From an uncultured virus (IMG/VR IMGVR_UViG_3300013845_000001) (lineage: Duplodnaviria > Heunggongvirae > Uroviricota > Caudoviricetes): DNA of 64,000 nt. Made by a program: the position numbers and the translations under genes. The notes under the pieces were generated by a model, which was not told where the DNA came from, did not search any database, and saw only the letters and a program-made list of their open reading frames with translations. The first letter of the stretch is position 1. Every line of letters starts with the position of its first letter. This document shows, one piece after another, positions 3,407 through 55,040 of this stretch. The stretch lies in the IMG/VR virus record IMGVR_UViG_3300013845_000001, positions 62,001 to 126,000 of that record; one strand, 5' to 3'.

Positions 3407-3601
3407 ATGTCAAATTCAATATTATCAATCGTGCCACAACGGTTCTCATTTGAGAAACCAACACTCACCAACGCAAAAGGTGAAATCATCTCACATGGAA
3501 TAAATGTATCAATATCAATCGATGCATTCCAAGCGGATAAAATTCAATTAAAAAAGGACTTAGCTGCTATTTTTGCAGAAGTCCTTGAATACTTTGATTA
3601 A
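3407..3601 (+). CDS. Hypothetical protein
   Basis: 64 aa, AAGGGGG SD, preceded by the AGAGAAT motif. Confidence 0.55.
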   Translation: MSNSILSIVPQRFSFEKPTLTNAKGEIISHGINVSISIDAFQADKIQLKKDLAAIFAEVLEYFD

Positions 3602-4127
3602 TTTTGTCTAATGCCTTAGATGGGTCTTTTGAAGAAGAATTTGTTTCAAATGAACCATCTAAAAATTTATAATTTATGTGAAACTTTGATTCAACCCTAT
3701 CTCCTAAAGTATTATATGTAAGAATAACATCAAACTCTTCAATGGGAACATTAGCCATATCTTCTTTACTAAACACTGTTGTAAATGATTGACTTGGTGC
3801 CAAGGATAATCCTTTATAAAATTCAAACGGGTTAATTATAATATTATTAGTGGGCATTTCTGGGATGATTTTTACATCAGTAATTATTCCGGTAGATGCC
3901 CCAAAATTTTGTATTTTAATTCTTGGAACAATATCACCATATATCTTGAATGGGAATATCTCTATCTGGGCCTTATTACCCTCTTTTATTATTTTGGTGT
4001 TTTGTTTCAAAGCAGCAACAGAAATAATTATTGAAATGACACCAAGAAACAAGGCAATCATTATACTTGCAATTTGAATAATATCTGACACAGTAAGTTG
4101 AATAATGTCTGATCCTACTATTTCCAT
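3567..4127 (-). CDS. Membrane-anchored hypothetical protein (moron-like)
   Basis: N-terminal transmembrane helix, GGAGG SD, opposite orientation to its neighbours. Confidence 0.75.
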   Translation of the reverse strand: MEIVGSDIIQLTVSDIIQIASIMIALFLGVISIIISVAALKQNTKIIKEGNKAQIEIFPFKIYGDIVPRIKIQNFGASTGIITDVKIIPEMPTNNIIINPFEFYKGLSLAPSQSFTTVFSKEDMANVPIEEFDVILTYNTLGDRVESKFHINYKFLDGSFETNSSSKDPSKALDKINQSIQGLLQK

Positions 4128-4749
4128 ACATTTTTCCTCCCGTCAATATGGAATATTTTAACATAATACTTTTCAAAAGACAACTCCTCAGTCACACTCT
4201 TACAACTTTTTTCCCCACATAAGAAATAGTCAAATATGTGAATACACTCTACAACGCACCAAAATCAATTTTAAGACATTTTGCCTCTTACATGACAATT
4301 ATATCATCAAACACATTTCAAGCCTGTACAAAGCCAAATATTAACGTCAAGATGATATGCTCATGACACTATCTTTGTGTAAATCTACTGAAAATAGAAT
4401 TCAATCTTTATATATAATTACTAAACTTAATATTAATCATACCCTAATCTCATGTTTTTCAATTCTAAATACTCCTATATTATGAAAATATCTTCTTATT
4501 GCAATCACGCGTATTTCATGCTTACAGGGGTATATTTTACATCTAAACAGAGAACTACATATCACACCACTACTCCCAACATTATTATGGAAATATATTT
4601 TACTCCTTCTATTTAAAAAGTATTACTCATGGATGATATGCGCAGCTTGAAAGCCAAAATAGAAAGAACGTAAATAATTACTTTTCAAATGGAGAATAAA
4701 TCATCAGATACCCAACCACAAAGAAACATTCATAAGGAGGATAAGCAAT

Positions 4750-5362: not shown

Positions 5363-6304
5363 TTGAAGAAATTAAATATTGACCCTGAATTACGAGATCT
5401 ACTACCACCTCTTACAAGCGATGAGTATAAACAGCTTGAAAAGAACATTGTCGAAAATGGATTCGATAGAAATTTTCCAATAATGGAGTGGCACGGTTTT
5501 ATAGTAGATGGACATAACCGCTATAGCATTTGTGAAAAGCATAATATTGATTTTATTTCCGGAACGCTTGCATATGAAACCAAAGAAGAAGTTATGGAAT
5601 GGATGCTTGATATTCAATTGGGACGTAGAAATCTATCTCCTATTCAGAGAATCGCCGTTACTGAGAAGTATCGTCCTATTTATGAAAGACAAGCAAAAGA
5701 AAATCTAATTACTGCCGGAAAAAATTATGGAGTTGGTAAGGAAGAAAAGCCTTTGGTAAATTTACCAAACCCTATTAATACAGTTAACACTTCCGAGAAA
5801 TTAGCATCTATCGCCGGTGTATCGGAGAAAACCTATCGCATGGGCGCGAAAGTTCTTAGTTCTGATAATGAAGAAGTAAAGAAACGTGTGTTATCAGGTG
5901 AAACATCTATTAGTGCGGGGTATAAAGAGTTAAACCAGAAAAAACAGGAAAGTGAAAATAAGAATGGAGAAAGTAATAATGTACCCCCTGTATTAGTTTC
6001 TACTAAATCAGATAATAAGCCACAAATTAGCGAGGAGGTAAAACAAATATGTGCTGATTTAAAAACAGAGAAGTCGCAAGAGTATCTTGAATCTATCTGG
6101 GATTACAAAATCGCAATCATAGAATGTACAAACGCAGGATTCAACAGGTTTTTTGATGGATTTGTTAGCACTTTGCAGGATATGGATGGGCGTGTAACAA
6201 AAAGAGAATTAGAAGAATGCATTAAAAATTCAGAATGCATGGTTGAAAAAATGCTGTCAGCAATTGAAGAATCAAAAAAAATCAAATTAAAAGTGGAGGA
6301 CTAA
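5363..6304 (+). CDS. ParB/Srx-like N-terminal domain protein with HTH
   Basis: LLPPLT..EY..L..NI..NG, IVDGHNRY, QLGRRNL motifs; EKLASIAGVSEKTY HTH. Confidence 0.8.
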   Translation: MKKLNIDPELRDLLPPLTSDEYKQLEKNIVENGFDRNFPIMEWHGFIVDGHNRYSICEKHNIDFISGTLAYETKEEVMEWMLDIQLGRRNLSPIQRIAVTEKYRPIYERQAKENLITAGKNYGVGKEEKPLVNLPNPINTVNTSEKLASIAGVSEKTYRMGAKVLSSDNEEVKKRVLSGETSISAGYKELNQKKQESENKNGESNNVPPVLVSTKSDNKPQISEEVKQICADLKTEKSQEYLESIWDYKIAIIECTNAGFNRFFDGFVSTLQDMDGRVTKRELEECIKNSECMVEKMLSAIEESKKIKLKVED

Positions 6305-6306
6305 AA

Positions 6307-7149
6307 ATGAAATTAAGAGAACTTATGAGCAAAATGGACGGAAAGATTCGAGTGGAGCATAAAGATGTTCCAATCGAAAAATTAGACTCTATGCTCGATT
6401 ATCAAAGAGATATTGATATGAATCGTGTTGAATTAATAAGTAGTGATGAGATTTTTGATGAAAATGAAGTTGACGAAGTAAAAGTCAGTGTTCGTATTGA
6501 TGGTTCTATGAAAGTTTGTGACGGGCAACATACAATAGCTATTCTTAAAAGAAGAGGTTGGTCTACTGTTCCATGTGAATTAAGACATGGACTAACCATC
6601 GAGGAAGAGAATGACTGGTTTAATATTACAAATACAAAAGAGAAACCACAATCAAGGAAAAGTACCCTTACTTCACAAATTCACGGTACATATGAAAAAA
6701 ATAAAGATGAGCAAGATTTCTACAATTGTATTAAATCTTTAGGATTTAAACTTGATATTTTTGGTGAAGATCCAGGAAACGATTATAGAATTACATGTCC
6801 TGCAAATTTGCTTAATATTTACAAAGATTATCAAAAAAGTGATTCCATTGATAACTTTGTTGAGTGTATGGATATTTTGAAAACCTGTTTTATTGGCGAT
6901 CCAGTTTCTTTGAAATGGAACTTTATAAGAGGAATGTTTGATTTTTATGAAGCGTATATTTTCGACTTTGATAGAAGCAGATTTATAAAAGTATTTAGTA
7001 AAATGTCAGCGAAAAATATTAAAACCAATGCAGAAAATGATAGCTATACTAAAAAACCATCATTGAAGTACGGAAAAATATTTGTAAGTGAGTATAATTC
7101 TAATCTTGCAAAGTCCAAAAGATTAAAAATGAGCAAACTTGAAGATTAG
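6307..7149 (+). CDS. ParB-like (DUF6551-type) protein
   Basis: DYQR and DGQHT motifs. Confidence 0.65.
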   Translation: MKLRELMSKMDGKIRVEHKDVPIEKLDSMLDYQRDIDMNRVELISSDEIFDENEVDEVKVSVRIDGSMKVCDGQHTIAILKRRGWSTVPCELRHGLTIEEENDWFNITNTKEKPQSRKSTLTSQIHGTYEKNKDEQDFYNCIKSLGFKLDIFGEDPGNDYRITCPANLLNIYKDYQKSDSIDNFVECMDILKTCFIGDPVSLKWNFIRGMFDFYEAYIFDFDRSRFIKVFSKMSAKNIKTNAENDSYTKKPSLKYGKIFVSEYNSNLAKSKRLKMSKLED

Positions 7150-7164
7150 GTGAGGTGACACGTC

Positions 7165-7944
7165 TTGCCTAACTATGTAAAGATACCAAGAGAAATAATA
7201 TACAACAAGGATTTATCAGATAAACGAGTGATTATCTTTTTATACTTATGTGCAAGGCGATCCTTAGATGACACGGTGGCGTTCAGTACAACTGAATTAT
7301 GCCACTGGTCACATCTAAAACCTAATTACAGAGATGGAAAGATTAATCAAAAGTATTATGAAGTTTTAGAAGCACTCTCACATTCCGGCTATTTCGTCAA
7401 TTTCCCAGACTTTGAAAAACTGAAAATTGAGAAGAAGAATTCAAATGAGTATCAGTTAATCAACATTGATATATCCAAGTTTGATGTACCTGATAATTTT
7501 GGGATTATATATTTTGATGAATTGGACAAGATTTTGGATTTCAAAGGAGAATTAAAAGATAGTGGTATTGATTTATCCAGAATGTCATCGGCTTATATCC
7601 TCCTACTACTATCCTACCTACGTGTGAACATGAACCGCAACGAGGACAAACCACTATGCTGCTATCGCCACTACAAGAAAATATCAGATGATATCGGACT
7701 ATCTGAGAGATACATCGGAAGAATTGTGGGAATATTAGAATCCTTAAAAATCGTGAAGTGTGTAGAAGTAAAGAGAAATAGGTATGAGAAAGATGACGTA
7801 GGTTATGGATTTATCACCGGCCCCAAAGTATTTGCAGATTACAGACGTTTTGTCAAAGATGAAAACGGTAACGTAAGATTAGATGAAAATTATGACCATA
7901 TGTCAGAAATTACAAAGCAGTTAGAAATCCTAAATGGAGCATAG
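7165..7944 (+). CDS. Putative replication or regulatory protein with winged-HTH domains
   Basis: YVKIPREII N-terminus; KISDDIGLSERYIGRIV HTH. Confidence 0.55.
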   Translation: MPNYVKIPREIIYNKDLSDKRVIIFLYLCARRSLDDTVAFSTTELCHWSHLKPNYRDGKINQKYYEVLEALSHSGYFVNFPDFEKLKIEKKNSNEYQLINIDISKFDVPDNFGIIYFDELDKILDFKGELKDSGIDLSRMSSAYILLLLSYLRVNMNRNEDKPLCCYRHYKKISDDIGLSERYIGRIVGILESLKIVKCVEVKRNRYEKDDVGYGFITGPKVFADYRRFVKDENGNVRLDENYDHMSEITKQLEILNGA

Positions 7945-8062
7945 AGCAACAGAGAATATATACATGAAACCAAATCAATCAATGGCTCACCAGAAAGGCG
8001 GTCAACGATGATGCAAGAAATAATAACAAAAATTGAATATGAGAAGGAGAATTACAAATTAC

Positions 8063-8644
8063 ATGACAGGAACAAATACATATGCAAACAGAAAACATAG
8101 AACATATGGAGGTGAAATTTCACTAGAAGATTTTAACACTACTCTCCCAAATAAAAAGAGAATTAATAATCAGATCAATGCCGATAATTTGCATTCATCA
8201 CTAGAAAATAAGAAAGTAAAAAACAATGAGGAGAGAAAGTATAAAAATATGACACTTGAAGAATTAAGAGAAATGAAAATTGTATCAAATACAAATGGAC
8301 GCCCATCTTTTACCTTGACAGATGAAAAATGGCAAAAGGAATTTAATGTTAGAAAGTTGTTTAATCAAGGATATTCAAAAGAGGTTAAGAAACTTGGTGG
8401 CAAAGGCTCAAAAGAATCAGGCTTGTGGAACGAAGAAACAAAGGGTGATTACCATGGTTGTACTAATTGGCAGCAATATTGTTGCTATATAAATGATATT
8501 TTGAGCAATATTCGCTCTGGGCAGATTGATTATTGTTATTACATATATCAAATTATGGATCTTGCAAAGTTTTACTTTGGTAAAGAACAGTTGAAGACCA
8601 AGTATCGTGATGGATATTGGGAAGTGTGGTTAGAGAATGCGTAA
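8063..8644 (+). CDS. Hypothetical protein
   Basis: Long ORF; start placed after AAGGAG. Confidence 0.6.
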   Translation: MTGTNTYANRKHRTYGGEISLEDFNTTLPNKKRINNQINADNLHSSLENKKVKNNEERKYKNMTLEELREMKIVSNTNGRPSFTLTDEKWQKEFNVRKLFNQGYSKEVKKLGGKGSKESGLWNEETKGDYHGCTNWQQYCCYINDILSNIRSGQIDYCYYIYQIMDLAKFYFGKEQLKTKYRDGYWEVWLENA

Positions 8645-8821
8645 GCTCAATGTTAAAAGAAGAAAATATCAGGTGAGTAAAACTGCACAGAATCAGTTTT
8701 ATGCTTAAAATTTCAATAACCACCATTGCACAGAAAATTCTACTGCCACTGGTGGAGAAATACTTACCTAACGAACATGCGTTTAAAAATTCAATATTAA
8801 TGAATAGAAAGGAAATTAAAT

Positions 8822-9166
8822 ATGCTTAGATACGAAACAGAGGCAAATGTAACAGTTTCAATTGATTTACAAAATGGTTATTCAGTCATTGCAATGGCGA
8901 GGTGGGATAACGAGAAAAAGAAATACTACACTACTCTTCTACTACATGAAAATACTGTGAGTAAGTGGGATCTCATTGAAGAGGCAGCAAACGTAGAAAT
9001 CGATTCAGATATGAAGACAATCAAAAGGGATATGGCTCAGTATGTTACGGATCTTCTTACAGATGGATTCTTTAAGAAATACATAGACAGGTATGAGTAT
9101 GAGCTGAAATGCTTCGATAGGGGCTTTGAGATTATGGAGAAAGAGAGGAAAAGTGCAAATGATTAA
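8822..9166 (+). CDS. Hypothetical protein
   Basis: 114 aa, AAAGGA SD. Confidence 0.75.
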   Translation: MLRYETEANVTVSIDLQNGYSVIAMARWDNEKKKYYTTLLLHENTVSKWDLIEEAANVEIDSDMKTIKRDMAQYVTDLLTDGFFKKYIDRYEYELKCFDRGFEIMEKERKSAND

Positions 9167-9449
9167 AGGACTGATTAGATTTGCAAAGAAGTTGGTTGGT
9201 GTATATGAACATGGTTATGAGTATTGGGTTAAGTTAAGCGATATACATATTACTCCTCAATTCAGGTGGTCAAGAATTAAATCAGCTAAATATAAAAGGA
9301 AATGGCAGTTTTATCATAGAAACGGATATTGCGAAAGCAGAATTGTACTGAATAGGAATTTCGAGCTGGTTGACGGGTATAGTTCTTACAAAATATATAG
9401 GTCTGCTGAAGGTGAGGATTGTAAGGTGCCGGTGTGGTTTGTTGAATAG
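9159..9449 (+). CDS. Small ParB-like hypothetical protein
   Basis: LVDGYSSY motif; ATG overlaps the end of the previous gene. Confidence 0.6.
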   Translation: MIKGLIRFAKKLVGVYEHGYEYWVKLSDIHITPQFRWSRIKSAKYKRKWQFYHRNGYCESRIVLNRNFELVDGYSSYKIYRSAEGEDCKVPVWFVE

Positions 9450-9476
9450 AAAAAAATATTATGGGAGGATACAGAT

Positions 9477-12242
9477 ATTTTAGACGTACAAATTAACATG
9501 TATTCTGTTGATACGGGACATTTTTATAGTAATCATGAAAAATATCTTCATGACATGAATTGTAAATATCGCAGAGAACGCAACTACATAAATAACAAGC
9601 TTCCTGAGTTAGAAAAACAGTTAAAAGAATTTGGATACTCTAAAGACGATATATCATTGTTTCGGTCAGATAAATCTGAAGAGGTCGAATCTGAAATATT
9701 GCCAGAACATATAGATACTATTCATGAATATATCAAATGGAATAATCTTATAAGGCATAAAAGAGAAAAAGCAAAAGAATCTAAAGACAAATTGCTTGTT
9801 ATTCTAGCAAATAGGGTATCTCAAAATGAGAAGACAAATGGTAAAGACCATACACGTAAAATAAGAAAAGATAGTTTAACAGATAATAATGTAATATCGG
9901 TCTTTGATTCCGCTCTCACCAGAACGATTGGGATAAAGCAAGATGAGCTAACAGATGCATTAATGGTTGTGCAGGTATATTATTTTGACGTATTTAAAGA
10001 TATTTCATTTTATGGGTTTACATATAACGGTGAAAAATATAAATATTTTACTTCATCTGCCGGGCAGATTCGCAAGAAAAAGGCAGTTTTTATAAAAGAA
10101 TCTGTCTGGAACCGTATTGAAAAAACCGTAATGTGCGGATTGACAATTGATAAAATCAATTCTAAAGGCGGGAATAATGTAAACAAACATCTTGCTTATA
10201 TGGCTCTTACTAATTCGGCGACTGACCAGTGGGAAGATTTCGAGATAGACAAATCAATAGTAATTGATGATTTTGAAACGAACGTATATGGTACTTTTGA
10301 TTTCATAGACGAATCAGATTATTCTATCACCAGAAAAACAGATTATGTTCCAATTCCTCACACGGACGGAGCTGGAATGATGCTACCAAGTGTAAGCCAA
10401 AAGAATTTTATGTTTCGTGCACCGTGGATTAAAGGGCTATTAGGAGTATTTGACTTTAGAAAATTTGTTGAGGTCAACCACTACTCTCCTATTATCAAAG
10501 ATATTTACGGGCAAGAACATGACATAATTAAAGAAGACATCCAAGTAATCTTTACTAAAAGCCAATTCAAAATGCAAAAATATTATGAGTCATGGGATGA
10601 GTATAAGAGTTTTTATAAAAAATATAATTGTACTTCTGGTATTTGTAATGTTGAAGAAGATAGAGTTAAGAATGCAAAAATCAATTATCAAATGCTTCAA
10701 ACTCTTACGAATATTACTGATTCTGAAATAGATATATTAACGGAAAAGTCCATCGAAAAGATAGAAAACGTATGTACGTCAAAAGATACAATGATGAATA
10801 TTCTAGGGGTTACTCCATATAACACAAAAATGACTCCTTTTCAAAAAGCCATTAAAATTTATCCTTCACTTTTATCAGATACATATGCGAAAGATGTAAT
10901 TCGTGAGGTTAAAGATAGTCTTTTAAAAAAATATCGTAGCGGAAAGCTTGAAGTGATTGGCAAATATACATTCTTACTTCCGGATTTTTATGCGGCATGT
11001 GAGTATTGGTTTGGTGGAATAGAAAATCCAAATGGATTATTAAGTGATAAGGAAGTTTTTTGTAATCTGTTCAAAAAAAGCGATAAGCTGGATTGCCTAA
11101 GAAGTCCACATCTATATAAAGAGCATGCTATAAGGTTTAATGTGGCAAGTGATGGATATGGAGATCGGGTATCAAAAATTAAAGAATGGTTTACTACTAA
11201 CGCCGTTTATACTAGTGTTCACGATTTGATAAGCAAAATTCTTCAGTTTGATGTTGATGGAGACAAGAGTCTAGTTGTGGCAGAACCTAATTTTGTTAGA
11301 ATCGCAGAAAGAAATATGAATGGGGTTGTTCCACTCTATTACAATATGAGAAAGGCTGATCCTACATTGCTTAATAACAAGACAATTTATACAGGATTAA
11401 ATGCAGCATTTACTCACGGGAATATCGGGATCTATAGTAACGACATTTCGAAAATATGGAATAATGATGTGTTTATAGCGGGAAATGAGAAAGAACAGAA
11501 GGAAGCCATTGACACCGTAAAACTTCTTTGTATGGAAAACAATTTCTGTATTGACAGTGCCAAGACACTATACATGCCAGAGAGACCAGATTGGTTTAGA
11601 CCCGTTGTTTCAAAATACACCAAAAAGAAACTACCTGCATTTTTTAAATATGCTAAGGATAAGGAAAAGGAACAGGTAGAAAAACGAAATCAGAGTTTTG
11701 TTAATAAAATTTTTGATAGAATTCCAAATAAGGCGATTAACACTAGTGGACTAAATCTTGGTTCTATAGATTATCGTTTATTGATGAGTGATGTAAATAT
11801 AGTTTGCAGTGAAGAGGTTTCTGGTTTGTATGACGAATTGAATAGAAAATATCGTTACATGATAAATATGAAAGATGAATATATTGACAATCTGAGATAC
11901 GTTGCTTGTGAAATTAGAGAGAGATTTAATGCCATTGGATACTCTGAAGAAACTACCTCTGATATGTTGGTAGAATATTTATATGGACACGAAAAACGAT
12001 ATAAACAATTGTTATGGTTCTGTTATGGTCAGAATATTGTAAATAATTTAGAAAAAAATATTCAGATTAAGAAAACCAAGTTTATTCAGTGTATTGATTG
12101 TGGAGAATGGGTTGAAGTTGATATAAAAGATACAAATACCGAGCGATGCAATGAATGTTATTTGTTATATAGAAGGAAATATAAGGCGGAAAAAGAAAAA
12201 AATAGAAGAAAAAGACTTTCGTGGACAGCTCAAGATAGCTAA
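9477..12242 (+). CDS. yonO: YonO-like single-subunit phage RNA polymerase (double-psi beta-barrel family)
   Basis: Catalytic QFDVDGD; TDGAGMM, RAPWIKG and LRSPHL motifs; C-terminal CxxC..CxxC; SPbeta-like position. Start proposed at ATT 9477 (GGAGG 8 nt upstream) rather than ATG 9498. Confidence 0.9.
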   Translation: MLDVQINMYSVDTGHFYSNHEKYLHDMNCKYRRERNYINNKLPELEKQLKEFGYSKDDISLFRSDKSEEVESEILPEHIDTIHEYIKWNNLIRHKREKAKESKDKLLVILANRVSQNEKTNGKDHTRKIRKDSLTDNNVISVFDSALTRTIGIKQDELTDALMVVQVYYFDVFKDISFYGFTYNGEKYKYFTSSAGQIRKKKAVFIKESVWNRIEKTVMCGLTIDKINSKGGNNVNKHLAYMALTNSATDQWEDFEIDKSIVIDDFETNVYGTFDFIDESDYSITRKTDYVPIPHTDGAGMMLPSVSQKNFMFRAPWIKGLLGVFDFRKFVEVNHYSPIIKDIYGQEHDIIKEDIQVIFTKSQFKMQKYYESWDEYKSFYKKYNCTSGICNVEEDRVKNAKINYQMLQTLTNITDSEIDILTEKSIEKIENVCTSKDTMMNILGVTPYNTKMTPFQKAIKIYPSLLSDTYAKDVIREVKDSLLKKYRSGKLEVIGKYTFLLPDFYAACEYWFGGIENPNGLLSDKEVFCNLFKKSDKLDCLRSPHLYKEHAIRFNVASDGYGDRVSKIKEWFTTNAVYTSVHDLISKILQFDVDGDKSLVVAEPNFVRIAERNMNGVVPLYYNMRKADPTLLNNKTIYTGLNAAFTHGNIGIYSNDISKIWNNDVFIAGNEKEQKEAIDTVKLLCMENNFCIDSAKTLYMPERPDWFRPVVSKYTKKKLPAFFKYAKDKEKEQVEKRNQSFVNKIFDRIPNKAINTSGLNLGSIDYRLLMSDVNIVCSEEVSGLYDELNRKYRYMINMKDEYIDNLRYVACEIRERFNAIGYSEETTSDMLVEYLYGHEKRYKQLLWFCYGQNIVNNLEKNIQIKKTKFIQCIDCGEWVEVDIKDTNTERCNECYLLYRRKYKAEKEKNRRKRLSWTAQDS

Positions 12243-13861: not shown

Positions 13862-13934
13862 TGACTAATAGCTCAGTTGGTAGAGCGCCTGTCTGTTAAA
13901 CAGGATGTCGTAGGTTCAAGCCCTACTTAGTCAG
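13862..13934 (+). tRNA. tRNA-Asn (GTT), CCA not encoded
   Basis: Acceptor TGACTAA/TTAGTCA; D-arm GCTC/GAGC; anticodon arm CCTGT-CTGTTAA-ACAGG; T-loop GGTTCAAGCC. Confidence 0.93.
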
Positions 13935-44943: not shown

Positions 44944-45041
44944 AATCTCCACCATATTATAGTCAACATTTATTTATTAACCCACTCTCCTTTCACACAA
45001 GGGGAGTTTTTTATTGTGTAAATTTTTGAGAGGAGAATTAT

Positions 45042-46595
45042 ATGGCTGATTTTAGAACTCTCGTAGAACTTATATTTGATAAAGCAAAAGCGAGAAATGA
45101 ATTAAATAGCATTTTAAAGGAATTACAAAAAGACGCCAATTTAAAAACGGAAATAAAAGTCGGTACTTCTGAGGCAAAAAAGGATTTAAATGAAACCGCT
45201 TCAGCAATTGGGAAGATTGTAACTGAATCTAGGCAGTTGTCAAAAGTTAATACAATTAAGACATGGGCTGACAACAACACTAAAGCCATGAAGATGTTTG
45301 GTGATCAGATTCAGGACATCATCACCAAAATGGGAAAGGCTAATCTTTCGCTGTCTGATTTTAAAGGTCTAGATGCCGATTTTAATAGGATTAAAATAGC
45401 GTCCAGAGATATGAATTTACTTGGTAAGACCTGGGGTGATTCGTTTAAGGCAGACGCAAGCAAATTTGCTTCATGGTTGCTTCCTTCTGGCGGAATCATG
45501 ACTGCCATTAGTGGACTACGTAAAATGAAGGACTCTATCGTTGACATAGATACTGCTCTGACTAATCTCTATAAAGTATCCGATGAAACTGGTTCAAAAT
45601 ATAGACAGGTTCTTCAAAGTTCTAATGTGGAGGCTCAAAAACTTGGCAGAACTGTATCCAGTCTTATTGAACAAACTGCAACATGGAAAAAGCTTGGTTT
45701 TACTATAGATGAATCTTCTGAACTTTCAAAAGTATCTTCTATTTATGCTAACGTAGGCGAAGTATCAGATGACGTTGCTGTTTCTGATTTAGTAACCGCA
45801 ATGAAAGCCTTTAACATTGCTGGCTCAGACAGTATAACAATTGTAGATTCGCTTAACAAGCTAGGTAATGAGTTTGCTACTGATTCCGCTTCGTTAGGTG
45901 AAGGTCTTAAAAATTCTGCATCTTCTCTACGTCTTGCTGGAAATGATATTAATCAAACTCTTGCAATGCTAACAGGTGGTACAGAAATTATTCAAAACGC
46001 AGGAGAAATGGGTAATGCTCTGAAAATACTAAGTATGAGAATACGAGGTATGAAGGGCGAGCTAGAAGCACTCGGAGAAGAATATGACAATGTGGAGTCA
46101 ATATCAAAAATACAAACCCAGATCTTGAATCGTACTGGCGGTACAGTAAATATATTTGACAATAATGGAAACTTCAAATCTACATATGAAATACTAAAGG
46201 GAATATCGGAAGTATGGGATAAAATTTCTCAAACCGACCAGGCTGACCTTTTAGAAGTTATCGCAGGCAAACAACGCGGCAACAGTGCTGCAGCTTTAAT
46301 TCAATCATTCCAATCTGGTCAAGTACAAAAGGCTCTTGAAGCTTCAACAAAATCCGCAGGATCGGCATATGAAGAACAAGAAAAATGGATGGAATCAATT
46401 GAGGCGAAGACCAAACAGTACGAAGCCTCGTTCCAGTCACTATCACAAACTATTATTAATTCAAATTTCTTAAAGTTTCTTATAGATTCTGGTACGACAT
46501 TTAATAATGTATTAGATAAGACAATAAACGGCTTTGGTGTTTTGTCTACTACGCTTTCCGGTGCTGGTATAGCGGCATTCATTAAAAACTACGGT
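45042..46595 (+). CDS. Tail tape measure protein, exon 1 (TP901-type core)
   Basis: IDTALTNLYKV, LNKLGNEFA, GNALKILSMRIRG, AGKQRGN; ends ..KNYG with the stop supplied by the first intron codon. Confidence 0.92.
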
Positions 46596-47112
46596 TAACT
46601 CTGTAATAAGAGTTACGCTTAAATTTCCGAGGGATTTAAGTTGGCCTATCATGGGGAAGAATATATCATAATGGCGATATAAACAATTCCATGGGACGAA
46701 AGTTTTAAAATAAAAAGAGGATTAATTGCTTGAAAGTGTAATGCTCACTACTCTTCTATTTTAGAAGAAACCGAAAAATAAGGTAAATAAGTCAAACGGT
46801 TTACACACCGGAGTGAGATTTCTAGGGATAAAAAATAATTCCCGACAGATGTACAATCACCAACGAAGCAGCTAGCCCTATCTGTGTATCACGATGTATA
46901 ATCCGATGGTAACAATTGCGCAAGCAATGTCGGGATAAGATCATTAATGATAGGGAGTGTTCAGAGAGCACCACTCCTCACAGTACATGAAAGCCATATT
47001 TCATTGTGCTGTTAACGCATGTTCCAAAGTGTACACGATATCAACGCTTCACGAGGCGCTGGATATTATAATGTTGTAAAAGATATGGGCTACAGCCTAT
47101 CATTGAGCGTAA
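46596..47112 (+). ncRNA. Group I ribozyme core
   Basis: P AAUUGCUUGAAA (46724-46735); Q CGAAGCAGC (46864-46872); R GUUCAGAGAGCA (46959-46970); S AACGCAUGUUCC (47014-47025); P3 GAGGA/UCCUC; P6a CCCUAUC/GAUAGGG; P8 46980-47012. Confidence 0.85.
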
Positions 47113-47285
47113 TATGGAAAAGTTAATCGTTTCTATGTTATGTATCAAAATAGTTATGTAGATTCTCCCATATTTTTAAATAAAGTATTTATTCGCCTTT
47201 TTATATGATTGAATACTAATATAATGTACCATCCTATATATTGTTTGAATATAATACAATAAATCAAATGGAGATGTATAGAAAT

Positions 47286-47444
47286 ATGACGAAAAAAATT
47301 ATTAATTTGACCGAAGAAGGCGAAGCTCTAGGATATCCAAAAACTCCAGATTCTGAGATGATAGAGATGGGTATATTTGATGGAAAGATAATCAATTTTA
47401 TAAAAGTAATGTTTATAAAGATAGTTAAAATGATGAAAAGGTAG
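47286..47444 (+). CDS. Small hypothetical protein (intron cargo)
   Basis: GGAG SD, TATAAT upstream, hydrophobic/basic C-terminus, followed by a hairpin. Confidence 0.5.
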   Translation: MTKKIINLTEEGEALGYPKTPDSEMIEMGIFDGKIINFIKVMFIKIVKMMKR

Positions 47445-47457
47445 TCAATAGACTACC

Positions 47458-47619
47458 TTATTCCTCGTTCTTTTTATTTTTGTCGTTATCATTAACATGT
47501 TTAATTTCTGAGAACATCTCTACCACATATTCTGGTCTAGGCGTACTTGGATACTGTTCTCCTTTTTCATTGGTGTTATTAGTACTTGTCATCTTGATAA
47601 CATTTTCATCGTCTGACAT
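47458..47619 (-). CDS. 53-aa hydrophilic protein (intron cargo)
   Basis: GGAGGAG SD, overlaps the end of the membrane-protein gene. Confidence 0.6.
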   Translation of the reverse strand: MSDDENVIKMTSTNNTNEKGEQYPSTPRPEYVVEMFSEIKHVNDNDKNKKNEE

Positions 47620-48187
47620 TTATTTCTCCTCCTTCTATATGAATATTTTGTATATTATTATTATTTATAAATTTGGTCTCATAGTAATCAATACCGACAC
47701 CGAATGTATACGATAAAATAGATACTGCGAAAGTGATGCATATGAAATAACTCAACGATTTATGTTTCATGTTCTTTGTAATGTTCACATTTCTATTATG
47801 AATGGCTTCATTAATAAAACATTCACAGAGCATATTATTTACATGTATATCTGCTTTTTTAATATGCTTTTTATCTGTCATTTGATATGTTTGTGAGATC
47901 GCAACAGCCATATCTTTAATTGGGAAATAACTCATTTTATAGCCAGAGTATGCTTTATAAAACTTGTGCAAGCAAATTATAAATAAAATCGTTGACAAAG
48001 CGCAAAATATCAAGTAAACAATAGTACACCATGATAAAGAAAAACGAACAAATTGTGACCAAAGTAATATTTGTGCACTACCAAGTATTGTAAGAAACGT
48101 AATACAAGTATTAATTTTATTACTTAATCTATCGGAATATTCTATCTCCTTATAATATAAGTCTTTGTATTCTTCAAGCAATTCCAT
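47606..48187 (-). CDS. Three-TM membrane protein (intron cargo)
   Basis: Three hydrophobic helices; AAGGAG SD; topology reminiscent of Pycsar-effector/SLATT-like proteins. Confidence 0.8.
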   Translation of the reverse strand: MELLEEYKDLYYKEIEYSDRLSNKINTCITFLTILGSAQILLWSQFVRFSLSWCTIVYLIFCALSTILFIICLHKFYKAYSGYKMSYFPIKDMAVAISQTYQMTDKKHIKKADIHVNNMLCECFINEAIHNRNVNITKNMKHKSLSYFICITFAVSILSYTFGVGIDYYETKFINNNNIQNIHIEGGEINVRR

Positions 48188-48473
48188 ATGATGATGTTCT
48201 CCTTTGTATCATATGGAATATTTTACCATCGTCAATACAATAAAACAAGAAACAGATGTTTGTCGATGAGGATATAAAATCGACATATTTCGACATTTAT
48301 AATATTGAGTTAGTCATTAAGCTGTATATTAAAATAACATAAGCTGAACCCCTCTTTTATACTACAATCTTGCGTCTTACTAGCTTCATTGTTTTCAAAA
48401 TTTTTATACCTATCTGGAAATTTCTTCCACTCCATGATATAATAATTTTTAAAAGAGATACAGGAGGGATTGT

Positions 48474-49565
48474 ATGAAAAGGTTATTATCAATTGTATTA
48501 GTTTTTATTTTCTCTATTAGTTTACTCATGACGTCTTCTGCCGAAGAATATATGGGAGCATGGGTCACAGATGATATTGGAACTTGGTATCGATATAATG
48601 ATGGAACATATCCTTCTTCCTGTTTTATAAAGAAAGATAGAAAACTTTATTATATTAATCAAGATGGGTATGTAGCCCCTAATGTATCACTGTTTGGAGG
48701 ATATCAAACAGATTCTCAAGGAACAGTTATAGGATATACTACTAAAAATAATGTCTATTCTTTATTGCATACGTCTGATGGTTGGAGACAAGATGCAAAT
48801 GGTTGGTGGTATCAATACCCAGACGGTTCTTACCCTAAAAATACTGATATTACTGTAAATGGTAAACTTTATTGGTTAGGAATTGACGGATATATGTTGC
48901 ATGATTGTTATGCAAGAAATCATGGTTATTATGGAAGCGATGGCTCTTATGCTAATAAACTTGATAAAAATGCAAAGATTACTATACAGCAACCAGCATC
49001 AGATACAAGAAGCGATGGAGCCGGGGTTGAAAATACATCGAATGAAGCTTTTCTTAATCTAGTCCATCCAGTCGATATAATAGGTGGCGGCTTTGTTGAA
49101 AATTATGTGGGTGGAATAAGTCCTAGCGTCGCTTTTAGAAACAACTCGGGTAAAGATATAAAATATGTAACCCTTGAAATGACACCTTATAACAGAGTTG
49201 GAGATCCTGTGAATTGTACAATCCGAAACTATTCAACAACAACATGTAGAGCCACGGGTCCATACGCTCCTGATATGGGTGTTGGACAAGGAGCATATTC
49301 AATTACTTCTGGACTGGTACCAATATTTGATCATGATACAGATCACCCTTATTATTATACATCACGCACTTTCGAAAAGAGGGAATTAGAAAAGGCAGCA
49401 TATGCAAAGACATTTAATAACATGCCAGGTTGGGAAAATGTTTGGTATAATAGCAATATATATAAAATAAAAATCACAAAAGCTATTATTGATTATATGG
49501 ATGGTACAAGTGACACAATATCCTCTTTAGATATTACAATGTTCCACGACGATTCCCTCAATTAA
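48474..49565 (+). CDS. Secreted cell-wall-binding repeat protein (intron cargo)
   Basis: Signal peptide MKRLLSIVLV..SSA; GWRQDANGWWYQYPDGSYP-type repeats. Confidence 0.88.
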   Translation: MKRLLSIVLVFIFSISLLMTSSAEEYMGAWVTDDIGTWYRYNDGTYPSSCFIKKDRKLYYINQDGYVAPNVSLFGGYQTDSQGTVIGYTTKNNVYSLLHTSDGWRQDANGWWYQYPDGSYPKNTDITVNGKLYWLGIDGYMLHDCYARNHGYYGSDGSYANKLDKNAKITIQQPASDTRSDGAGVENTSNEAFLNLVHPVDIIGGGFVENYVGGISPSVAFRNNSGKDIKYVTLEMTPYNRVGDPVNCTIRNYSTTTCRATGPYAPDMGVGQGAYSITSGLVPIFDHDTDHPYYYTSRTFEKRELEKAAYAKTFNNMPGWENVWYNSNIYKIKITKAIIDYMDGTSDTISSLDITMFHDDSLN

Positions 49566-49596
49566 ACAAACAGTTAATTGATATAATATGAAATTC

Positions 49597-49630
49597 AAAA
49601 GACCTTTATCAACAAAGGTCTTTTTTCTTT
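49597..49630. terminator. Bidirectional intrinsic terminator inside the intron
   Basis: AAAAGACCTTT-ATCAAC-AAAGGTCTTTT followed by T-run, between convergent genes. Confidence 0.85.
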
Positions 49631-50036
49631 AAAATTTACTCCCACAATTATTGCATTTCCAAGTCTTACCGTTATCTCCCATGCCGAAAATTCCAAATGC
49701 AGCTATCTTTGCGACCTTTTTTGTTGCGGATATTTTAGAGAGGTTTGTGCTGCTACATGTGGGGCATTTTGGAATATTATTTTCTACCTGTTTTTGCGCC
49801 GCCCACATAGCCTCTTGCTCAGGAGTAGCTAAACCTACTGTTCTATTGCACTGAGGACAGATATATTCATTATTTTTTATTGAATAATTCATCTTGATCT
49901 TATTAGGCAACCCAAAATTACAATAAGGGCATTCTACTGTATTTTTTATTAGATCAAGATTAAAGCCACAATGTGGGCATGATTTTGCACTATCGCTAAT
50001 ATTATTATCGCATTCTGGACATTTAATTAAAGCCAT
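49629..50036 (-). CDS. Multi zinc-ribbon protein (intron cargo)
   Basis: MALIKCPEC..CPHCG, CPYC, CPQC, PKCPTCSS..WKCNNCG. Confidence 0.88.
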   Translation of the reverse strand: MALIKCPECDNNISDSAKSCPHCGFNLDLIKNTVECPYCNFGLPNKIKMNYSIKNNEYICPQCNRTVGLATPEQEAMWAAQKQVENNIPKCPTCSSTNLSKISATKKVAKIAAFGIFGMGDNGKTWKCNNCGSKF

Positions 50037-50067
50037 AAATATATTCCCCCACTTATTATTTATGCAT

Positions 50068-50096
50068 ATTATACTTCTATTTATTGTTTAATGCAA
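50068..50096 (-). promoter_or_regulatory. Sigma-A promoter for the zinc-ribbon gene, overlapping the 3' splice site
   Basis: TTGCAT (50096-50091)-17-TATAAT (50073-50068). Confidence 0.65.
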
Positions 50097-53000
50097 CTTA
50101 AAGACCTCGGAAATCTTTCAAACGTTTTAAAGAATATAAATAGTAGTAACAATATAGCTGACAGTTTTAATGCTCTTGAAGTAAGTATGCAAAAGTGTGT
50201 GCTCGCCAGCGGAAAGTTAAGTGTTGCACAACTGGATGCAATAAATTCAGGTACCATATGGAAAACCAACATTGATGGTACTATGGTTTCTGTATCAGGT
50301 CTTTCTAAGACTGAATTAGAAGCAGCAATTTCCACTACCACTCTCTCCGCTTCACAGACCACTGCAACAGCAACTACAACTGGATTCGGTACTGCCCTTA
50401 AAGGTCTTTGGGCAACCATGATGGCAAATCCTTTAATTGCAATAGGAATGGCCGTAACAGCTATCTCAACAGCATGGAATATTTATAATCAGTCCATCGA
50501 AAAAACAAGACAAGCTTCAGCTGATGCGGCGGGCGCATTAAACGAAACCACCTCATCAATTAATGATTATGCTGAAAAGTATAAAAAATTACACGATGAA
50601 CTTGTCAAGGCAAACACTACCGAAGAACGACAGCATGAAATAAAAAGTGATCTTCTTGCGCTCCAACAAGAATTAAACGATAAGTACGGAGATGAGTACG
50701 GAAAATTAAATCTTGTTACAGATGCTTATAATGATCAGACCGATGCAATCTTGGCAAGAAATAAAGCCGCTGCACAAAATTACCTTCTTGAAAATAGAAA
50801 AGGTATAGCTGATGCGACTAAGCAAATGGAACAAGACCGTACCTATACGCTTGGCAGCACTGGTAATTTATCAAACGACTATGCAAAAGAAATATATAGT
50901 ATAGCTTCAAAATACTCTAACCAGGGTATAAAACTAGAGTCTCTTAAAAATAACGGAGTAGATGCCTATACCATCAAGTTTTTTGGAAATGCCGAAAATG
51001 CAGAAAAAGTCATACGTAATCTCTCCAATGAGATTCAAGATCTTGGAAATAAATATGAAGACAACAACTTCATCAATGGGTTCTTAGATAACTCAACAAA
51101 TGCACTTAAAGAGAACCAAAAAATATTAGATAAATACGATGAAATATATAACTCCGCATTGATGTCTCAAATTGCCACTGATAACGAACTATCAGAAGGT
51201 TATAATAAGGCTACAAATGCCGTTAAAGCATATAACGATGCACTAATTTCTGGTGACGAATCTAAAATATTATCGGCAAGAGATGATCTTAGGGAAGTAA
51301 AAAATTCCATTGATTTAACAAGCGATAACTGGAAACGATATGGAAATGTAATGACTGATATTTTCGATCAGGCTAATACTGGACTATACGATTTTAGAGA
51401 TGCGCTCTCTTCAAATAACGATAATATCAAAGATTATGCTAAAAATCTAAAAGGTTTATCAAAAACAGATGTATTATCCATGGCAAATGATGGAAAAGAT
51501 GATAGTTTTGATAAAATTGTTGAATCTGCCAATAAATATGGATTAAGTATTAACCAGGTCATTGATGAATTGGTCAGATTGAAATTTGTTCAAGATGATG
51601 TAGCAAAATCTGGTGAAGTAGCATTCACTCCTCTCTCCAAGCAAGAAGTAATTTCAAACATCAACTCTCTATCTGAAGGTTTTGAATCTTTAGATAAAAT
51701 TATGAAGAGTATATCCGACAAAGATAATCCGTTTGACTATGCTCTACTAGATGACAAAAAGTTCAAAGATAATTTTAAAGACTTGGGAGAATCATATACC
51801 GATTTCGTTGAAAAAGTATCTTCTTCACCAAAAGATATTAATATCACAAAATCTGCATTCAATGATCTCGTAACTACATGGATTGATAGTTCTGGTGTAT
51901 TAAATGGACTTACAGACGAAAACGCCAATCTTGCTACTGCTATGCTTCAGAACATGGGTGTTGCTAATGCGGAAGAAGTTGTAATGTCTCGATTAGCAAT
52001 TGCACAGGAGCATTTAGCTGCTGAAAAAGCTTATACGGCAGAAGTAAGTAATGACCTCGCAAATGCTACCGCCAGTGAGATTCCAGGAATCATAGATGAG
52101 GCAACTCAAAGTGATATCGCTAAGGTTGCGCTTGCCGGGCTGGTATTAGAGAAGGAATTTTTCAATGGAAATGCACTTGATACTAGTGGAGATATTCAAA
52201 ATATCATCTCTCTTATCGGGGTCATCGGTACTGCCAATACAGCACTCAAAGCGTTAAATACCTTGAAAGCCGGTGGAAATGTAGGAGGCAATATTGGGGG
52301 AAAAGAAGGCTATGATGCTCTTGTAAGAAACGCACAACAGGAAGTAGATGAAGCAATAAAGGCTGCTTCTGAGTATAAGGGCAAGGGTTCAAGTGTCAAC
52401 GCATCGTATACAGGTGGTACAAAAACAAACAAGCCCTCTTCTGGTTCTAAAAAAGATAAAAAAGACACCGAGAAACCTATTGACTGGATTGAGCGACAGC
52501 TAAAATTGCTTAAAGATAAAAGGTCAGAACTGGTCAGTAAAATTTCTGACACCTATTCTGCATTTTCCACAGCTACGCATGATCAAATTCTGGAGCTGGA
52601 CAAAACACTCATTGACGAATATGCAAACGCAGTTAATCAGTATCAGCAGGAATATGATAAAGCTGTTAGTAAAATATCGGCTCAAAACAAAGCAAAAATA
52701 GAAAATGGGTCTATGTCTGTAGACACTCTTTCTGGTACTGAATTAGAAAATGTGCAATCAGCAATGGACGCTTATGATAAACTCGCTGGTACACAGAAGG
52801 AACAATCTGAAGCACAAAAAACGCATCTAGATGATATAAAGTCTAAATATGATGCTATTTCAAAATCTATTGAGAATGAAAACAATAAATTAAAAGATTC
52901 TAATTCTATACTAGAAAGCCAGATGGAATATTACAAGTCATCTGGTATTGTTATCGACTCTTCATTTTACGACAGGCTTATTCGGAATACGTCAGGATTA

Positions 53001-55040
53001 ATTTCTAATGCCAGAGATACAATTAGTAATAAACGAGCGGAATTAAGGGATCTGCTTGCTAATGGAGCAGACAAGTCCTCACAAGAGTATATTGATCTGA
53101 AAAGTGAAATTGCTGATGCAGAGAATAATGTATATGCTCTAAAAAAGGCGCAGGAAGAATACAGTAACCAACTACTCCAAATGCCAATAGACCACCTCTC
53201 CACATTAGTTTCGATGTATCAGGATATTGGAACCGCTATTTCGGATTGGGGAGCCGAGGTTGAGGCCTCTGGAAAGAAATTGGACGCAGGATATTACCAG
53301 CGTTTAATATCTAATAGTGCAAAAGTCGTAGATAATTTGAAAGAACAAGCATCATTAATTGAAGATACCATGTCTGAATATGAAGTGGGAAGTGACCGCT
53401 ACCTTGAACTCTATAATCAGTTACGGTCTGTTAACTCTGAAATGTCTACCACCGTCCAGAACATGCGTAAGCTAAATGAAGAGATGTTGAAACTTCCGCT
53501 TGAAAATATCGGTAGTTTTTCAACAGAGTTGCAGAAAGTAGCAGATGCATTAAGCAAGGTGCAAGAAGAACAGGATTTAGTTATCTCGGCAGTCACGAAC
53601 GCTATTCAGAAACAGATTGATGTTATTAACGACCAGAAAAACGCATACCAGGAAGCTAACGAATCACAGAAGAAGGGTTTAAAGGATAAACTTGACTTAC
53701 TTCAAAAGCAGAATACCCAATTAAAGCGACAGACCGACTATGAACAGTCTTTATATGATCTTCAAAAAGTGAACCAGCAAGCCACCGAGGCTGTAATTCG
53801 TGATGGAGAAAAAGTTTATGAGGTAAACGCAGATAAGCAAAGAGAAGCTCTCGAAAAAGTTCAAGATGCAAAATTCGCTCTCGAAACCGGAAAGATTCAA
53901 GATGAAATTGACGCACTCGATGAAGCGCTTGAAAAACAGAATGAATTATATGATTCACAGATAAAGAATCTTGAAACTATTGCAGATCGATGGAAACAAA
54001 TTGCAGAGAACATCAAAATTGCACAGGACGAAGCAAAGGCCGATGATATTCTAGGCGCCGGCTGGAAAGACAAGATACTCTCTGGTAATGACACTGCCCT
54101 ATTTAATACATTCTCAGGAATGTACGCAAACACCGCTGAACAGCTCAAAAAGTATCAAGATCAAATAGACTCCACAAATAATATTCAGTCATTGTTAGAG
54201 GATTACATTGCTTCATATAAGGAAGGAACAATCACTTACGATGAAGCCGTAAAAGGTATCAATAATCTCCTATCTCAGCTCAATCAGAAAATGTCTGCCA
54301 CAGATAATTTGAAGAATATCTTTGATTATTTAGGTACCGTAAATGACACGGCTGCTAACGCAGATGCGATTCTGACGGGTATCCAAAGTGGATTGAAAGA
54401 TACTGCCACTGAGTTACTAAAGTCCTTAGAACAGTACAATAAGAATGCTGGAATGATATCTGAATATACGTCTAGTTGGCAGAAACTTACCGACAACGTG
54501 TCTTCAATGCTTGAAGTGCTAAAAGAAGTCAGAAACAATTTAGAAGATAGTTATGATTATGAGCGAGATCGTGACAATGATAATACTAGATATGGAGGAG
54601 GAAAAGACGGAAGTCCCGGAACTCCCGGAAAGGGCGACTACGTAAATAGTGGCCCTGGTGTATATGCTGATGGCATCAAAAATGGACTTGTTGGGAAATC
54701 TACAGATTCTGAGCGAGAAAAGATGCTCAAACATCTTGCTACAAATAATTTGAAGCCGGGAGAAGTTCCAATACTTGCTCATGAGGGAGAGGCTATCTTT
54801 AATGATGAACAACAGAATAATCTTCTAAAGAACTTGGCGTCTGCTAATAGTTTTAAGCCTAATATTCCTGATTATGGCAGTTTTCTAAATCAAATTACAG
54901 TAAGAGAATCGACTCCAAAGCAAGAGTTTAATTTTGGGGATATCAACATTCAGAAATGTGATGCTCCAGATCAATTAGCACAAGGAATATTAGATGGTAA
55001 ACTTGCATTGGCATTAGGACAAAGACTCGGAAAAAGATAA
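50094..55040 (+). CDS. Tail tape measure protein, exon 2
   Basis: ALKGLWATMMANP, long helical region, IDWIER, EVPILAHEGEAIFN; no SD before ATG 50091. Confidence 0.9.
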   Translation, partial: QLKDLGNLSNVLKNINSSNNIADSFNALEVSMQKCVLASGKLSVAQLDAINSGTIWKTNIDGTMVSVSGLSKTELEAAISTTTLSASQTTATATTTGFGTALKGLWATMMANPLIAIGMAVTAISTAWNIYNQSIEKTRQASADAAGALNETTSSINDYAEKYKKLHDELVKANTTEERQHEIKSDLLALQQELNDKYGDEYGKLNLVTDAYNDQTDAILARNKAAAQNYLLENRKGIADATKQMEQDRTYTLGSTGNLSNDYAKEIYSIASKYSNQGIKLESLKNNGVDAYTIKFFGNAENAEKVIRNLSNEIQDLGNKYEDNNFINGFLDNSTNALKENQKILDKYDEIYNSALMSQIATDNELSEGYNKATNAVKAYNDALISGDESKILSARDDLREVKNSIDLTSDNWKRYGNVMTDIFDQANTGLYDFRDALSSNNDNIKDYAKNLKGLSKTDVLSMANDGKDDSFDKIVESANKYGLSINQVIDELVRLKFVQDDVAKSGEVAFTPLSKQEVISNINSLSEGFESLDKIMKSISDKDNPFDYALLDDKKFKDNFKDLGESYTDFVEKVSSSPKDINITKSAFNDLVTTWIDSSGVLNGLTDENANLATAMLQNMGVANAEEVVMSRLAIAQEHLAAEKAYTAEVSNDLANATASEIPGIIDEATQSDIAKVALAGLVLEKEFFNGNALDTSGDIQNIISLIGVIGTANTALKALNTLKAGGNVGGNIGGKEGYDALVRNAQQEVDEAIKAASEYKGKGSSVNASYTGGTKTNKPSSGSKKDKKDTEKPIDWIERQLKLLKDKRSELVSKISDTYSAFSTATHDQILELDKTLIDEYANAVNQYQQEYDKAVSKISAQNKAKIENGSMSVDTLSGTELENVQSAMDAYDKLAGTQKEQSEAQKTHLDDIKSKYDAISKSIENENNKLKDSNSILESQMEYYKSSGIVIDSSFYDRLIRNTSGLISNARDTISNKRAELRDLLANGADKSSQEYIDLKSEIADAENNVYALKKAQEEYSNQLLQMPIDHLSTLVSMYQDIGTAISDWGAEVEASGKKLDAGYYQRLISNSAKVVDNLKEQASLIEDTMSEYEVGSDRYLELYNQLRSVNSEMSTTVQNMRKLNEEMLKLPLENIGSFSTELQKVADALSKVQEEQDLVISAVTNAIQKQIDVINDQKNAYQEANESQKKGLKDKLDLLQKQNTQLKRQTDYEQSLYDLQKVNQQATEAVIRDGEKVYEVNADKQREALEKVQDAKFALETGKIQDEIDALDEALEKQNELYDSQIKNLETIADRWKQIAENIKIAQDEAKADDILGAGWKDKILSGNDTALFNTFSGMYANTAEQLKKYQDQIDSTNNIQSLLEDYIASYKEGTITYDEAVKGINNLLSQLNQKMSATDNLKNIFDYLGTVNDTAANADAILTGIQSGLKDTATELLKSLEQYNKNAGMISEYTSSWQKLTDNVSSMLEVLKEVRNNLEDSYDYERDRDNDNTRYGGGKDGSPGTPGKGDYVNSGPGVYADGIKNGLVGKSTDSEREKMLKHLATNNLKPGEVPILAHEGEAIFNDEQQNNLLKNLASANSFKPNIPDYGSFLNQITVRESTPKQEFNFGDINIQKCDAPDQLAQGILDGKLALALGQRLGKR

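Follow-up and report, generated by a model that had tools for sequence, protein, structure and literature searches.

The 64,000-nt stretch of the uncultured virus IMGVR_UViG_3300013845_000001 analysed here (the window; positions 62001-126000 in a virus record of 128,564 bases that has direct terminal repeats) carries a tape measure gene split by a 3498-nt insert at 46596-50093, which is probably a group I-type self-splicing intron. Its predicted catalytic core lies at the front, the remaining length forms a tail that houses cargo genes, and the element would be spliced in cis from a read-through late transcript by means of a long internal guide. The anatomy of the insert is set out below, together with the covariation of its helices and the conservation of its plan in 13 introns. 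Nearly all large open reading frames (ORFs) from ~26 kb to 62 kb lie on the + strand of the window, the pattern of a structural/late operon. The premise of the original prediction is borne out: a group I-type ribozyme stands at the 5′ end of the insert, its extended guide addresses exon 2, and some 3 kb with hairpins, a terminator and antisense genes separate it from the 3′ splice site. Its features are present where it named them, but the intron is here delimited to 46596-50093 and the conserved ribozyme ends at ~47066, not at 47112.

The two halves of the gene are recognised by comparison with uninterrupted proteins. Exon 1 (45042..46595, + strand; ORF, Pfam and alignment evidence) comprises the N-terminal 518 codons of the tape measure gene and ends ...AAC UAC GGU. 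Its ORF (45042-46598, 518 aa) matches Pfam PhageMin_Tail, and the product aligns with residues 1-519 of full-length homologues (~2130 aa). Exon 2 (50094..55040, + strand; homologue alignment) supplies the C-terminal part as 1648 codons plus stop; the corresponding ORF (50091-55040, 1649 aa) is in frame with that of exon 1, and the exon 2 product aligns from residue ~522 of the homologues onwards. About ten homologues of 1865-2537 aa, found among database proteins of 908-2590 aa, span both halves, with a seamless alignment across the joint (...GAFVKNF|QDLKNAG... vs ...AAFIKNYG (stop) + (M)QLKDLG... in the window). The protein alignment fixes the junction, such that U46595 of GGU is the last base of exon 1 and C50094 the first base of exon 2. 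The insert between them is a multiple of three in length, opens with an in-frame UAA (46596-98) and ends with the omega G at 50093 (+ strand), giving the 3′ splice site G50093|C50094.

Related introns were identified by searching viral contigs with the end of the exon 1 product, which returned 14 loci (L numbers denote these and the loci found later). In L002, L003 and L006 the gene is broken at the same codon as in the window, and high conservation is confined to the first ~440-470 nt of the insert; the alleles of L004 and L005 have no interruption. With a profile of the conserved core, a diverged version was detected in L007/L008 at the corresponding position of the gene (nhmmer E 4.6e-6). 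Two 14-mer scans of viral contigs gave mostly chance matches, and nhmmer-confirmed relatives alone were retained; a pattern that proved too specific recovered just three loci, all already known. A motif scan of three collections added members, including Lacrimispora sp. HJ-01 (chromosome, NZ_CP173277.1, locus L272), a cultured strain whose version measures 3857 nt, and Clostridium sp. HBUAS56010. Both ends were mapped in 13 distinct introns, with lengths of 832, 1796, 1873, 3084, 3498, 3857, 4238, 4406, 4416, 4686, 5453, 5493 and 5702 nt. In each of these a U precedes the 5′ splice site and a G precedes the 3′ splice site, and exon 2 follows on the same strand after 0.83-5.7 kb.

The group I-type core, with its L1 hairpin, guide and P2-P9, occupies 46596..47066 (+ strand) and is defined by hand-drawn helices, covariation and conservation. 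The helices drawn are P1, the L1 hairpin, P2, P2.1, P3, P4, P5 with four extension hairpins, P6-P6c (P6c capped by a GCAA loop), P7, P8 and P9. P3 and P7 interlock as the P3/P7 pseudoknot, and the P4-P6 and P3-P7-P8-P9 domains could be drawn in the canonical group I order. P7 consists of G46964, the bulged A46965 and GAGCA (46966-70), pairing with UGUUC (47020-24) and C47025, and the bulged A sits beside a G-C pair. This bulge, the G-C pair and R-/S-like elements are canonical for group I introns. The window helices were drawn with the L007 sequence as a guide, which contains GUUCAGAGACUA ... UAUAGUCC, corresponding to the classical group I elements R and S.

Covariation was assessed in an alignment (A5) of 13 sequences, 12 of them distinct, over 115 drawn pairs; L007 and the L280 clade were excluded from it, and their pairs were compared by eye only. 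Paired cells amounted to 96.3% in the drawn structure vs 90.9 +/- 0.4% in column shuffles and 41-45% when the partners were slid by 1-3 columns. Pairs with changes on both sides numbered 41 of 115, vs 14.7 +/- 2.2 in column shuffles and 3-9 with slid partners, and none of 500 shuffles attained either observed value. Covariation was seen in P1, P2, P2.1 and P5-P9, including P7, which occurs in the versions GAGCA/UGUUC, GAGUA/UACUC and GACUA/UAGUC. Judged by its hand-drawn structure and covariation, the front of the insert is predicted to be a group I-type ribozyme, one that escapes the curated Rfam model. RNAalifold also proposed a helix between exon 1 (AAAAACU) and 46701-46706 (AGUUUU), with one compensatory change (L268, L007) and a mismatch in the L280 clade; this helix is tentative.

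The core is conserved in relatives with divergent flanks, and it also occurs in DNA contigs of four public runs (X1-X4). In both the relatives and these contigs conservation stops at 47062-47069, which indicates that the ribozyme ends with P9 at ~47066 and that nothing conserved closes the tail. Among the introns compared, the sequence before the terminal G likewise holds no conserved element or tail-closing helix. The original prediction had closed the ribozyme domain through a 10-bp helix between 46613-46622 (UUACGCUUAA) and 47103-47112 (UUGAGCGUAA). The two strands are indeed complementary, with one G-U, but the pairing is at chance level and unconserved. A run as long arose in 26 of 200 cargo shuffles, and the helix was found in two of nine introns examined (the window and L258, which share a cargo module), the other seven having scattered or chance-level best runs. 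Furthermore, its 5′ strand overlaps the conserved L1 hairpin, where relatives carry indels, and its 3′ strand sits in variable cargo beyond the conserved core.

Both exons are predicted to be recognised by one internal guide at 46624..46646 (+ strand), identified by pairing and covariation, in which 46644-46646 (P1) addresses exon 1 and 46624-46643 (P10) addresses exon 2. The exon strand of P1 is GGU (46593..46595, + strand), which pairs with GCC (46644-46646). The U46595-G46644 wobble is kept as U-G in all 10 alignment rows with letters there, and position -2 covaries (GC in five A5 rows, CG in four, AU in one); L007 and the L280 clade also keep the wobble and have the version GAU/GUC. Abutting G46644, the P10 guide (UUUCCGAGGGAUUUAAGUUG) pairs with 50094-50113 as nine pairs, a 2x2 mismatch and nine pairs. 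No other site in the 64-kb window equals this match of 18/20, the runner-up scoring 16. The exon 2 strand (CAACUUAAAGACCUCGGAAA, 50094..50113, + strand) is defined by guide pairing and by conservation in L006, where the first 26 nt of exon 2 are 100% identical and the flanking gene is ~72% identical. Guide and exon 2 covary in three versions, namely that of the window clade, that of L268 (4 pairs, a loop and 10 pairs) and that of the L280 clade (~21 contiguous pairs including G-U). The ligated exons would pair with the guide as one continuous duplex, a group I P1/P10 layout with a P10 of ~20 bp.

These features suggest a mechanism in which the catalytic core would be confined to the first ~470 nt, leaving the stretch after P9 as an unconstrained tail. 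That tail could receive accessory genes that are transcribed independently, with an antisense zinc-ribbon gene at its end. The late-operon transcript would read through the tail, the ribozyme would cut at U46595 using a P1 of three base pairs, and the bipartite 20-nt guide beside the P1 strand would pair with the first 20 nt of exon 2. Guide pairing would bring G50093 into the guanosine site, and ligation of the exons in cis would yield one protein of ~2166 residues. With its long guide, the ribozyme would be able to locate a splice site kilobases off in an unstructured and changing tail. From the comparison of sequences we infer catalytic activity, read-through transcription and joining in cis rather than in trans, and cis-splicing of a read-through transcript is the simplest and most likely route.

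The original prediction had also offered natural trans-splicing, in which the exon 1-ribozyme RNA would end in the tail and the guide would capture a separate RNA, started in the tail, that carries G50093 and exon 2. A guide of ~20 nt is far longer than ordinary exon pairing, which a passage of PMC2504315 describes as involving the "last 4-6 nt". The lack of a conserved sequence or helix closing the tail before the 3′ splice site, and the terminator-like hairpins and antisense genes between core and exon 2, would also suit two separate RNAs, as would weak sense promoter-like sites at 50016-50045 in the window and 6087-6115 in L262. However, the colinear, same-strand exon 2 holds for 13 of 13 introns, and none of them shows the separate loci expected of a trans-spliced group I intron. 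Sense promoter-like sites occurred in two of four introns scanned, at about background density (51 found vs 36 in shuffles over 7.5 kb), and no conserved sense promoter precedes exon 2. A sense terminator-like site was found in the tail of two of these four introns, L262 and L279 showing none, and the window scan found no terminator-like site between the core end (~47066) and the first cargo gene. Moreover, the 832-nt intron of L268 retains the bipartite guide despite its nearby 3′ splice site. Because the guide alone ties exon 2 to the core, the capture of exon 2 on another RNA by the ~20-nt guide, as natural phage group I trans-splicing, keeps a small probability and is quite improbable. If it were true, the kilobases between core and splice site would be free to evolve as an independently transcribed defence/moron island inside an essential tail gene.

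Cis-splicing must also be weighed against the absence of any ligation, with the stop at 46596 ending a first protein, ATG 50091 starting a second, and the ribozyme surviving as a relic. The stop at the intron start agrees with this, and an ATG or TTG codon ends in the terminal intron G in nine of the 13 introns. In the other four the junction codon is UCG (L259) or ACG (L280, L281 and L284), and no Shine-Dalgarno sequence precedes ATG 50091 in the window; together, these two observations make independent translation of exon 2 unlikely. Many database tape measure proteins of ~1000 aa end at the same place, which would also fit two proteins. Those of ~930-1080 aa (P0004, P0005, P0007, P0011, P0018, P0024, P0029-P0031 and P0043 in the protein database) stop a few to ~15 residues past a KN(F/V/I)(D/G) motif, with unrelated tails. 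A ribozyme directly follows the gene of a P0005-type protein in the five closest of 11 loci returned (E ~1e-69 to 1e-71), the other six giving no match. Judging from these loci, the short P0005-type proteins are exon 1 translated on into a homologous intron and do not mark a natural boundary. In addition, P1, P7 and P10 are kept by covariation across clades, which is not expected of a relic. Colinearity in 13 introns, covarying P1, P7 and P10, missing start codons in four of 13 and the lack of a ribosome-binding sequence favour exon ligation, and the two-protein explanation is very improbable.

Several observations weigh against the proposed intron. P1 has only three base pairs, and P3 is invariant and hence without covariation support, since a helix that never varies is uninformative in this respect. 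No Rfam group I/II model matched the window at gathering score, or 46300-50400 at E ≤ 10, and RF00028 found nothing in the whole 128-kb record, yet it matched eight of 14 control genomes. In L007 (searched by guide complementarity and protein), L265 and L271, no convincing exon 2 was found in the available sequence, so that L265 may be a rearranged or decaying copy; these three are excluded from the count of 13. A 3.5-kb precursor could be hindered by several elements of the tail, namely a hairpin, a terminator-like hairpin with a U-run, three antisense ORFs and the antisense promoter across the 3′ splice site, and a search of public RNA runs found none containing the stretch. The Rfam group I/II models were also silent on four relatives, nine further loci and a Silviavirus region, and RF00028 likewise missed an R/S-bearing second insert of L003 and a related Staphylococcus phage region. 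The sole Rfam match above gathering score in the window was a tRNA gene at 13862-13934 (+ strand, 72 bits).

The potential obstacles to transcription are those that the original prediction had listed, and each was located. The hairpin between convergent ORFs at 47439..47459 (both strands) folds with -16.4 kcal/mol (z -4.2). The bidirectional terminator is present as a hairpin at 49597..49624 (both strands) with an 11-bp stem and a U-run (-11.6 kcal/mol; z -4.5 on the + strand and -3.6 on the - strand), separating the sense ORF 48474-49565 from the antisense zinc-ribbon ORF. The antisense genes correspond to the ORFs at 47458-47619, 47606-48187 and 49629-50036. An antisense promoter-like site, TTGCAT-17 nt-TATAAT (50096-50091 / 50073-50068, - strand), was read from the sequence, its -35 hexamer spanning the splice site G50093|C50094. 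The promoter scan missed this site because its -35 matches at only three of six positions; the scan found TTGCAA-16/17-TATAAT at the equivalent place in L262 and L279.

From these elements it had been proposed that the full precursor, and hence the full tape measure protein, arises only with terminator-resistant late transcription, such that tail assembly is limited to lytic growth. The U-run of the hairpin at 49597-49624 is consistent with such a checkpoint. Sense terminator-like hairpins are furthermore enriched in the late operon between 26 and 45.1 kb (17 vs 7.1 +/- 3.0 in shuffles), which suggests late transcription prone to read-through. However, the same enrichment means that the intron adds nothing special. 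A hairpin at 44984-45007, of about the stability of that at 49597-624, lies 35 nt before the tape measure start; read-through is therefore needed with or without the intron, and no special checkpoint is required. The tails of L262 and L279 lack a sense terminator-like site altogether, and late genes are in general already restricted to lytic growth through their promoters. A checkpoint of this kind is unlikely. Examples of the late-operon hairpins (+ strand) lie at 37550, 38870, 39703, 42659, 44248 and 44984.

Behind the core, the cargo region of the window (47067..50036, ORFs on both strands) was annotated from ORFs and family scans. It comprises a 67-aa ORF (47241-47444, + strand), a 53-aa antisense ORF (47458-47619, - strand), a 193-aa antisense ORF (47606-48187, - strand) with no family in the scans, a 363-aa secreted-type ORF (48474-49565, + strand) and a 135-aa zinc-ribbon ORF adjoining the 3′ splice site (49629..50036, - strand; Pfam zinc-ribbon matches). 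The secreted-type product has a signal-like N-terminus, and its residues 21-153 match two PHROGs endolysin families. In 11 of the 13 introns, among them that of 832 nt, the ORF closest to the 3′ splice site is antisense and has the same ~48-aa C-terminal zinc-ribbon motif. This motif, CPxC ... FG(I/L)(F/L) ... CxxC, accompanies the intron 3′ end in three clades, and Pfam, NCBIfam, PHROGs, PADLOC and Atlas gave no function for the protein.

Cargo modules are exchanged among relatives with sharp borders at 47068/9, 48395, 48469, 49629-41, 49778 and 50090, and cargo swaps are also present in the DNA contigs of X1-X4. Relatives carry nucleases (NYN and PBECR3), regulators (Bro-N/ANT antirepressors, helix-turn-helix and S24 repressor-like proteins), defence-like proteins (KwaA- and KwaB-like proteins and a GmrSD/NsnA-like nuclease) and others, such as YbjQ-like proteins, a toxin-like protein of MazF/PemK type and a choline-binding-repeat protein of secreted wall-binding type. 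No homing endonuclease (GIY-YIG, HNH, LAGLIDADG, His-Cys or PD-(D/E)XK) was found in the five cargo ORFs of the window or in 44 scanned ORFs of relatives. Such large, modular and prophage-borne cargo might suggest that a recombinase excises the insert from the DNA before late expression. However, the family scans of the window's insert detected no recombinase, and no direct repeats were noticed at the insert ends on reading the junctions, where no repeat search was run. Furthermore, the virus record with terminal repeats carries the insert, and no clean 46595|50094 joint occurs among the contigs of the four runs. Excision at the DNA level is extremely improbable. One joint in X4 runs from 47033 to 50090 with undetermined bases in between, and it was set aside.

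Comparison with known introns separates what is familiar from what appears to be new. The T4 sunY (nrdD) intron has a 5′ core, a downstream ORF that encodes a homing endonuclease, and a 3′ splice site far from the core, which conserved 3′-terminal helices assist. The window intron shares the 5′ core, the downstream ORF and the distance of the 3′ splice site from the core, but nothing before its terminal G is conserved and its tether would be the long P10. The known organellar group I introns that splice in trans are interrupted inside the ribozyme, with the halves apart in the genome, whereas the window intron has an unbroken ribozyme and a colinear exon 2. Excerpts on two of them, Isoetes cox1 (PMC2731911) and Prasinoderma rnl (PMC3873408), describe ribozymes from, or acting on, separate transcripts. 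No bacterial or phage trans-spliced group I intron appeared in the trans-splicing/bacteriophage literature, among the matches listed.

Group I introns have been reported from tape measure genes of Bacillus cereus group prophages (Tourasse and Kolsto 2008, PMC2504315), and the available part of that article gives group I introns a size of 200 bp to >1 kb, depending on a homing endonuclease ORF. On that part of the account (PMC2504315), the tape measure gene, several insertion sites per gene, P1/P10 selection and an early in-frame stop are shared with the introns described here. Differences from the B. cereus group introns, as far as the same excerpt goes, are lengths of 0.83-5.7 kb, accessory cargo on both strands, a P10 of ~20 bp and the lack of a detected endonuclease in the window intron. 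The giant ND5-717 group I intron of hexacoral mitochondria harbours many unrelated genes in its P8 loop; this cargo consists of essential mitochondrial genes and, in mushroom corals, is removed by back-splicing of a permuted precursor, according to portions of PMC6545197. Both elements house cargo genes; compared with ND5-717 as portrayed there, the cargo here lies past P9 and is accessory, variable and partly antisense. The literature searched yielded no account of accessory or defence genes in a phage group I intron, nor of a natural P10 of ~20 bp; the closest case is the P8-loop cargo of the coral mitochondrial introns.

Among phages, blastn and megablast of the region and of the window core against 50,697 phage records gave no match, and the L280-type core had only five short matches. 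The L007-type core matched 162-174 phage records, and the matches, at 74-79%, cover ~105-110 nt of the P3-P5 region; they include intergenic sites in Staphylococcus and Enterococcus Herelleviridae. One of the records is Thomasclavelia phage TR-TP1 (PQ571309.1), in which two HNH endonuclease genes interrupt the tape measure gene. In TR-TP1 a sense HNH endonuclease ORF lies directly past the core, whereas the window has its own core without a blastn match in the phage collection.

Phage tail genes were already known to harbour group I introns. What appears to be new is that the tail behind the core offers neutral room for exchangeable accessory genes, up to ~5 kb of them, and that a programmable pairing of ~20 bp fetches the 3′ splice site. 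If this is true, a new type of hotspot for accessory genes would be added to those of prophages, many of the "short" tape measure annotations of protein databases would be accounted for, and a natural ribozyme would be available whose recognition of both exons is long and can be retargeted. The curated Rfam model would, on the same evidence, overlook a whole clade of phage introns.

Some further observations concern the cargo and other insertions. A block of 95 nt is 90% identical between window 48395-48488 and L006:7136-7230, whose cargo sets otherwise differ. Within this block is a promoter-like site, TGGAAA-17-TATAAT, whose -10 is extended, as though a promoter cassette travels with cargo genes. 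KwaA-like and KwaB-like ORFs occur within the intron on opposite strands at L282:10634-12128, which is unusual for a Kiwa pair. Behind the ribozyme of L265 (reverse strand, 5378-9891) lie an ORF of 797 aa with a tail-collar domain and an IS66 transposase. The second insert of L003, at L003:6465-8556 (window equivalent 46405), is 2.1 kb long, lies in exon 1 and is absent from the window; it contains R/S-like group I motifs (GUUCAACGACUAGA ... AAAUAGUC) and a 478-aa ORF. Further interruptions of 1.3-1.9 kb, at other N-terminal codons, are found at L262:1868-3457, L268 (reverse strand) 2885-4324, L281:7149-8437 and L282:6915-8820; the tape measure genes of these four loci therefore bear two or more inserts.

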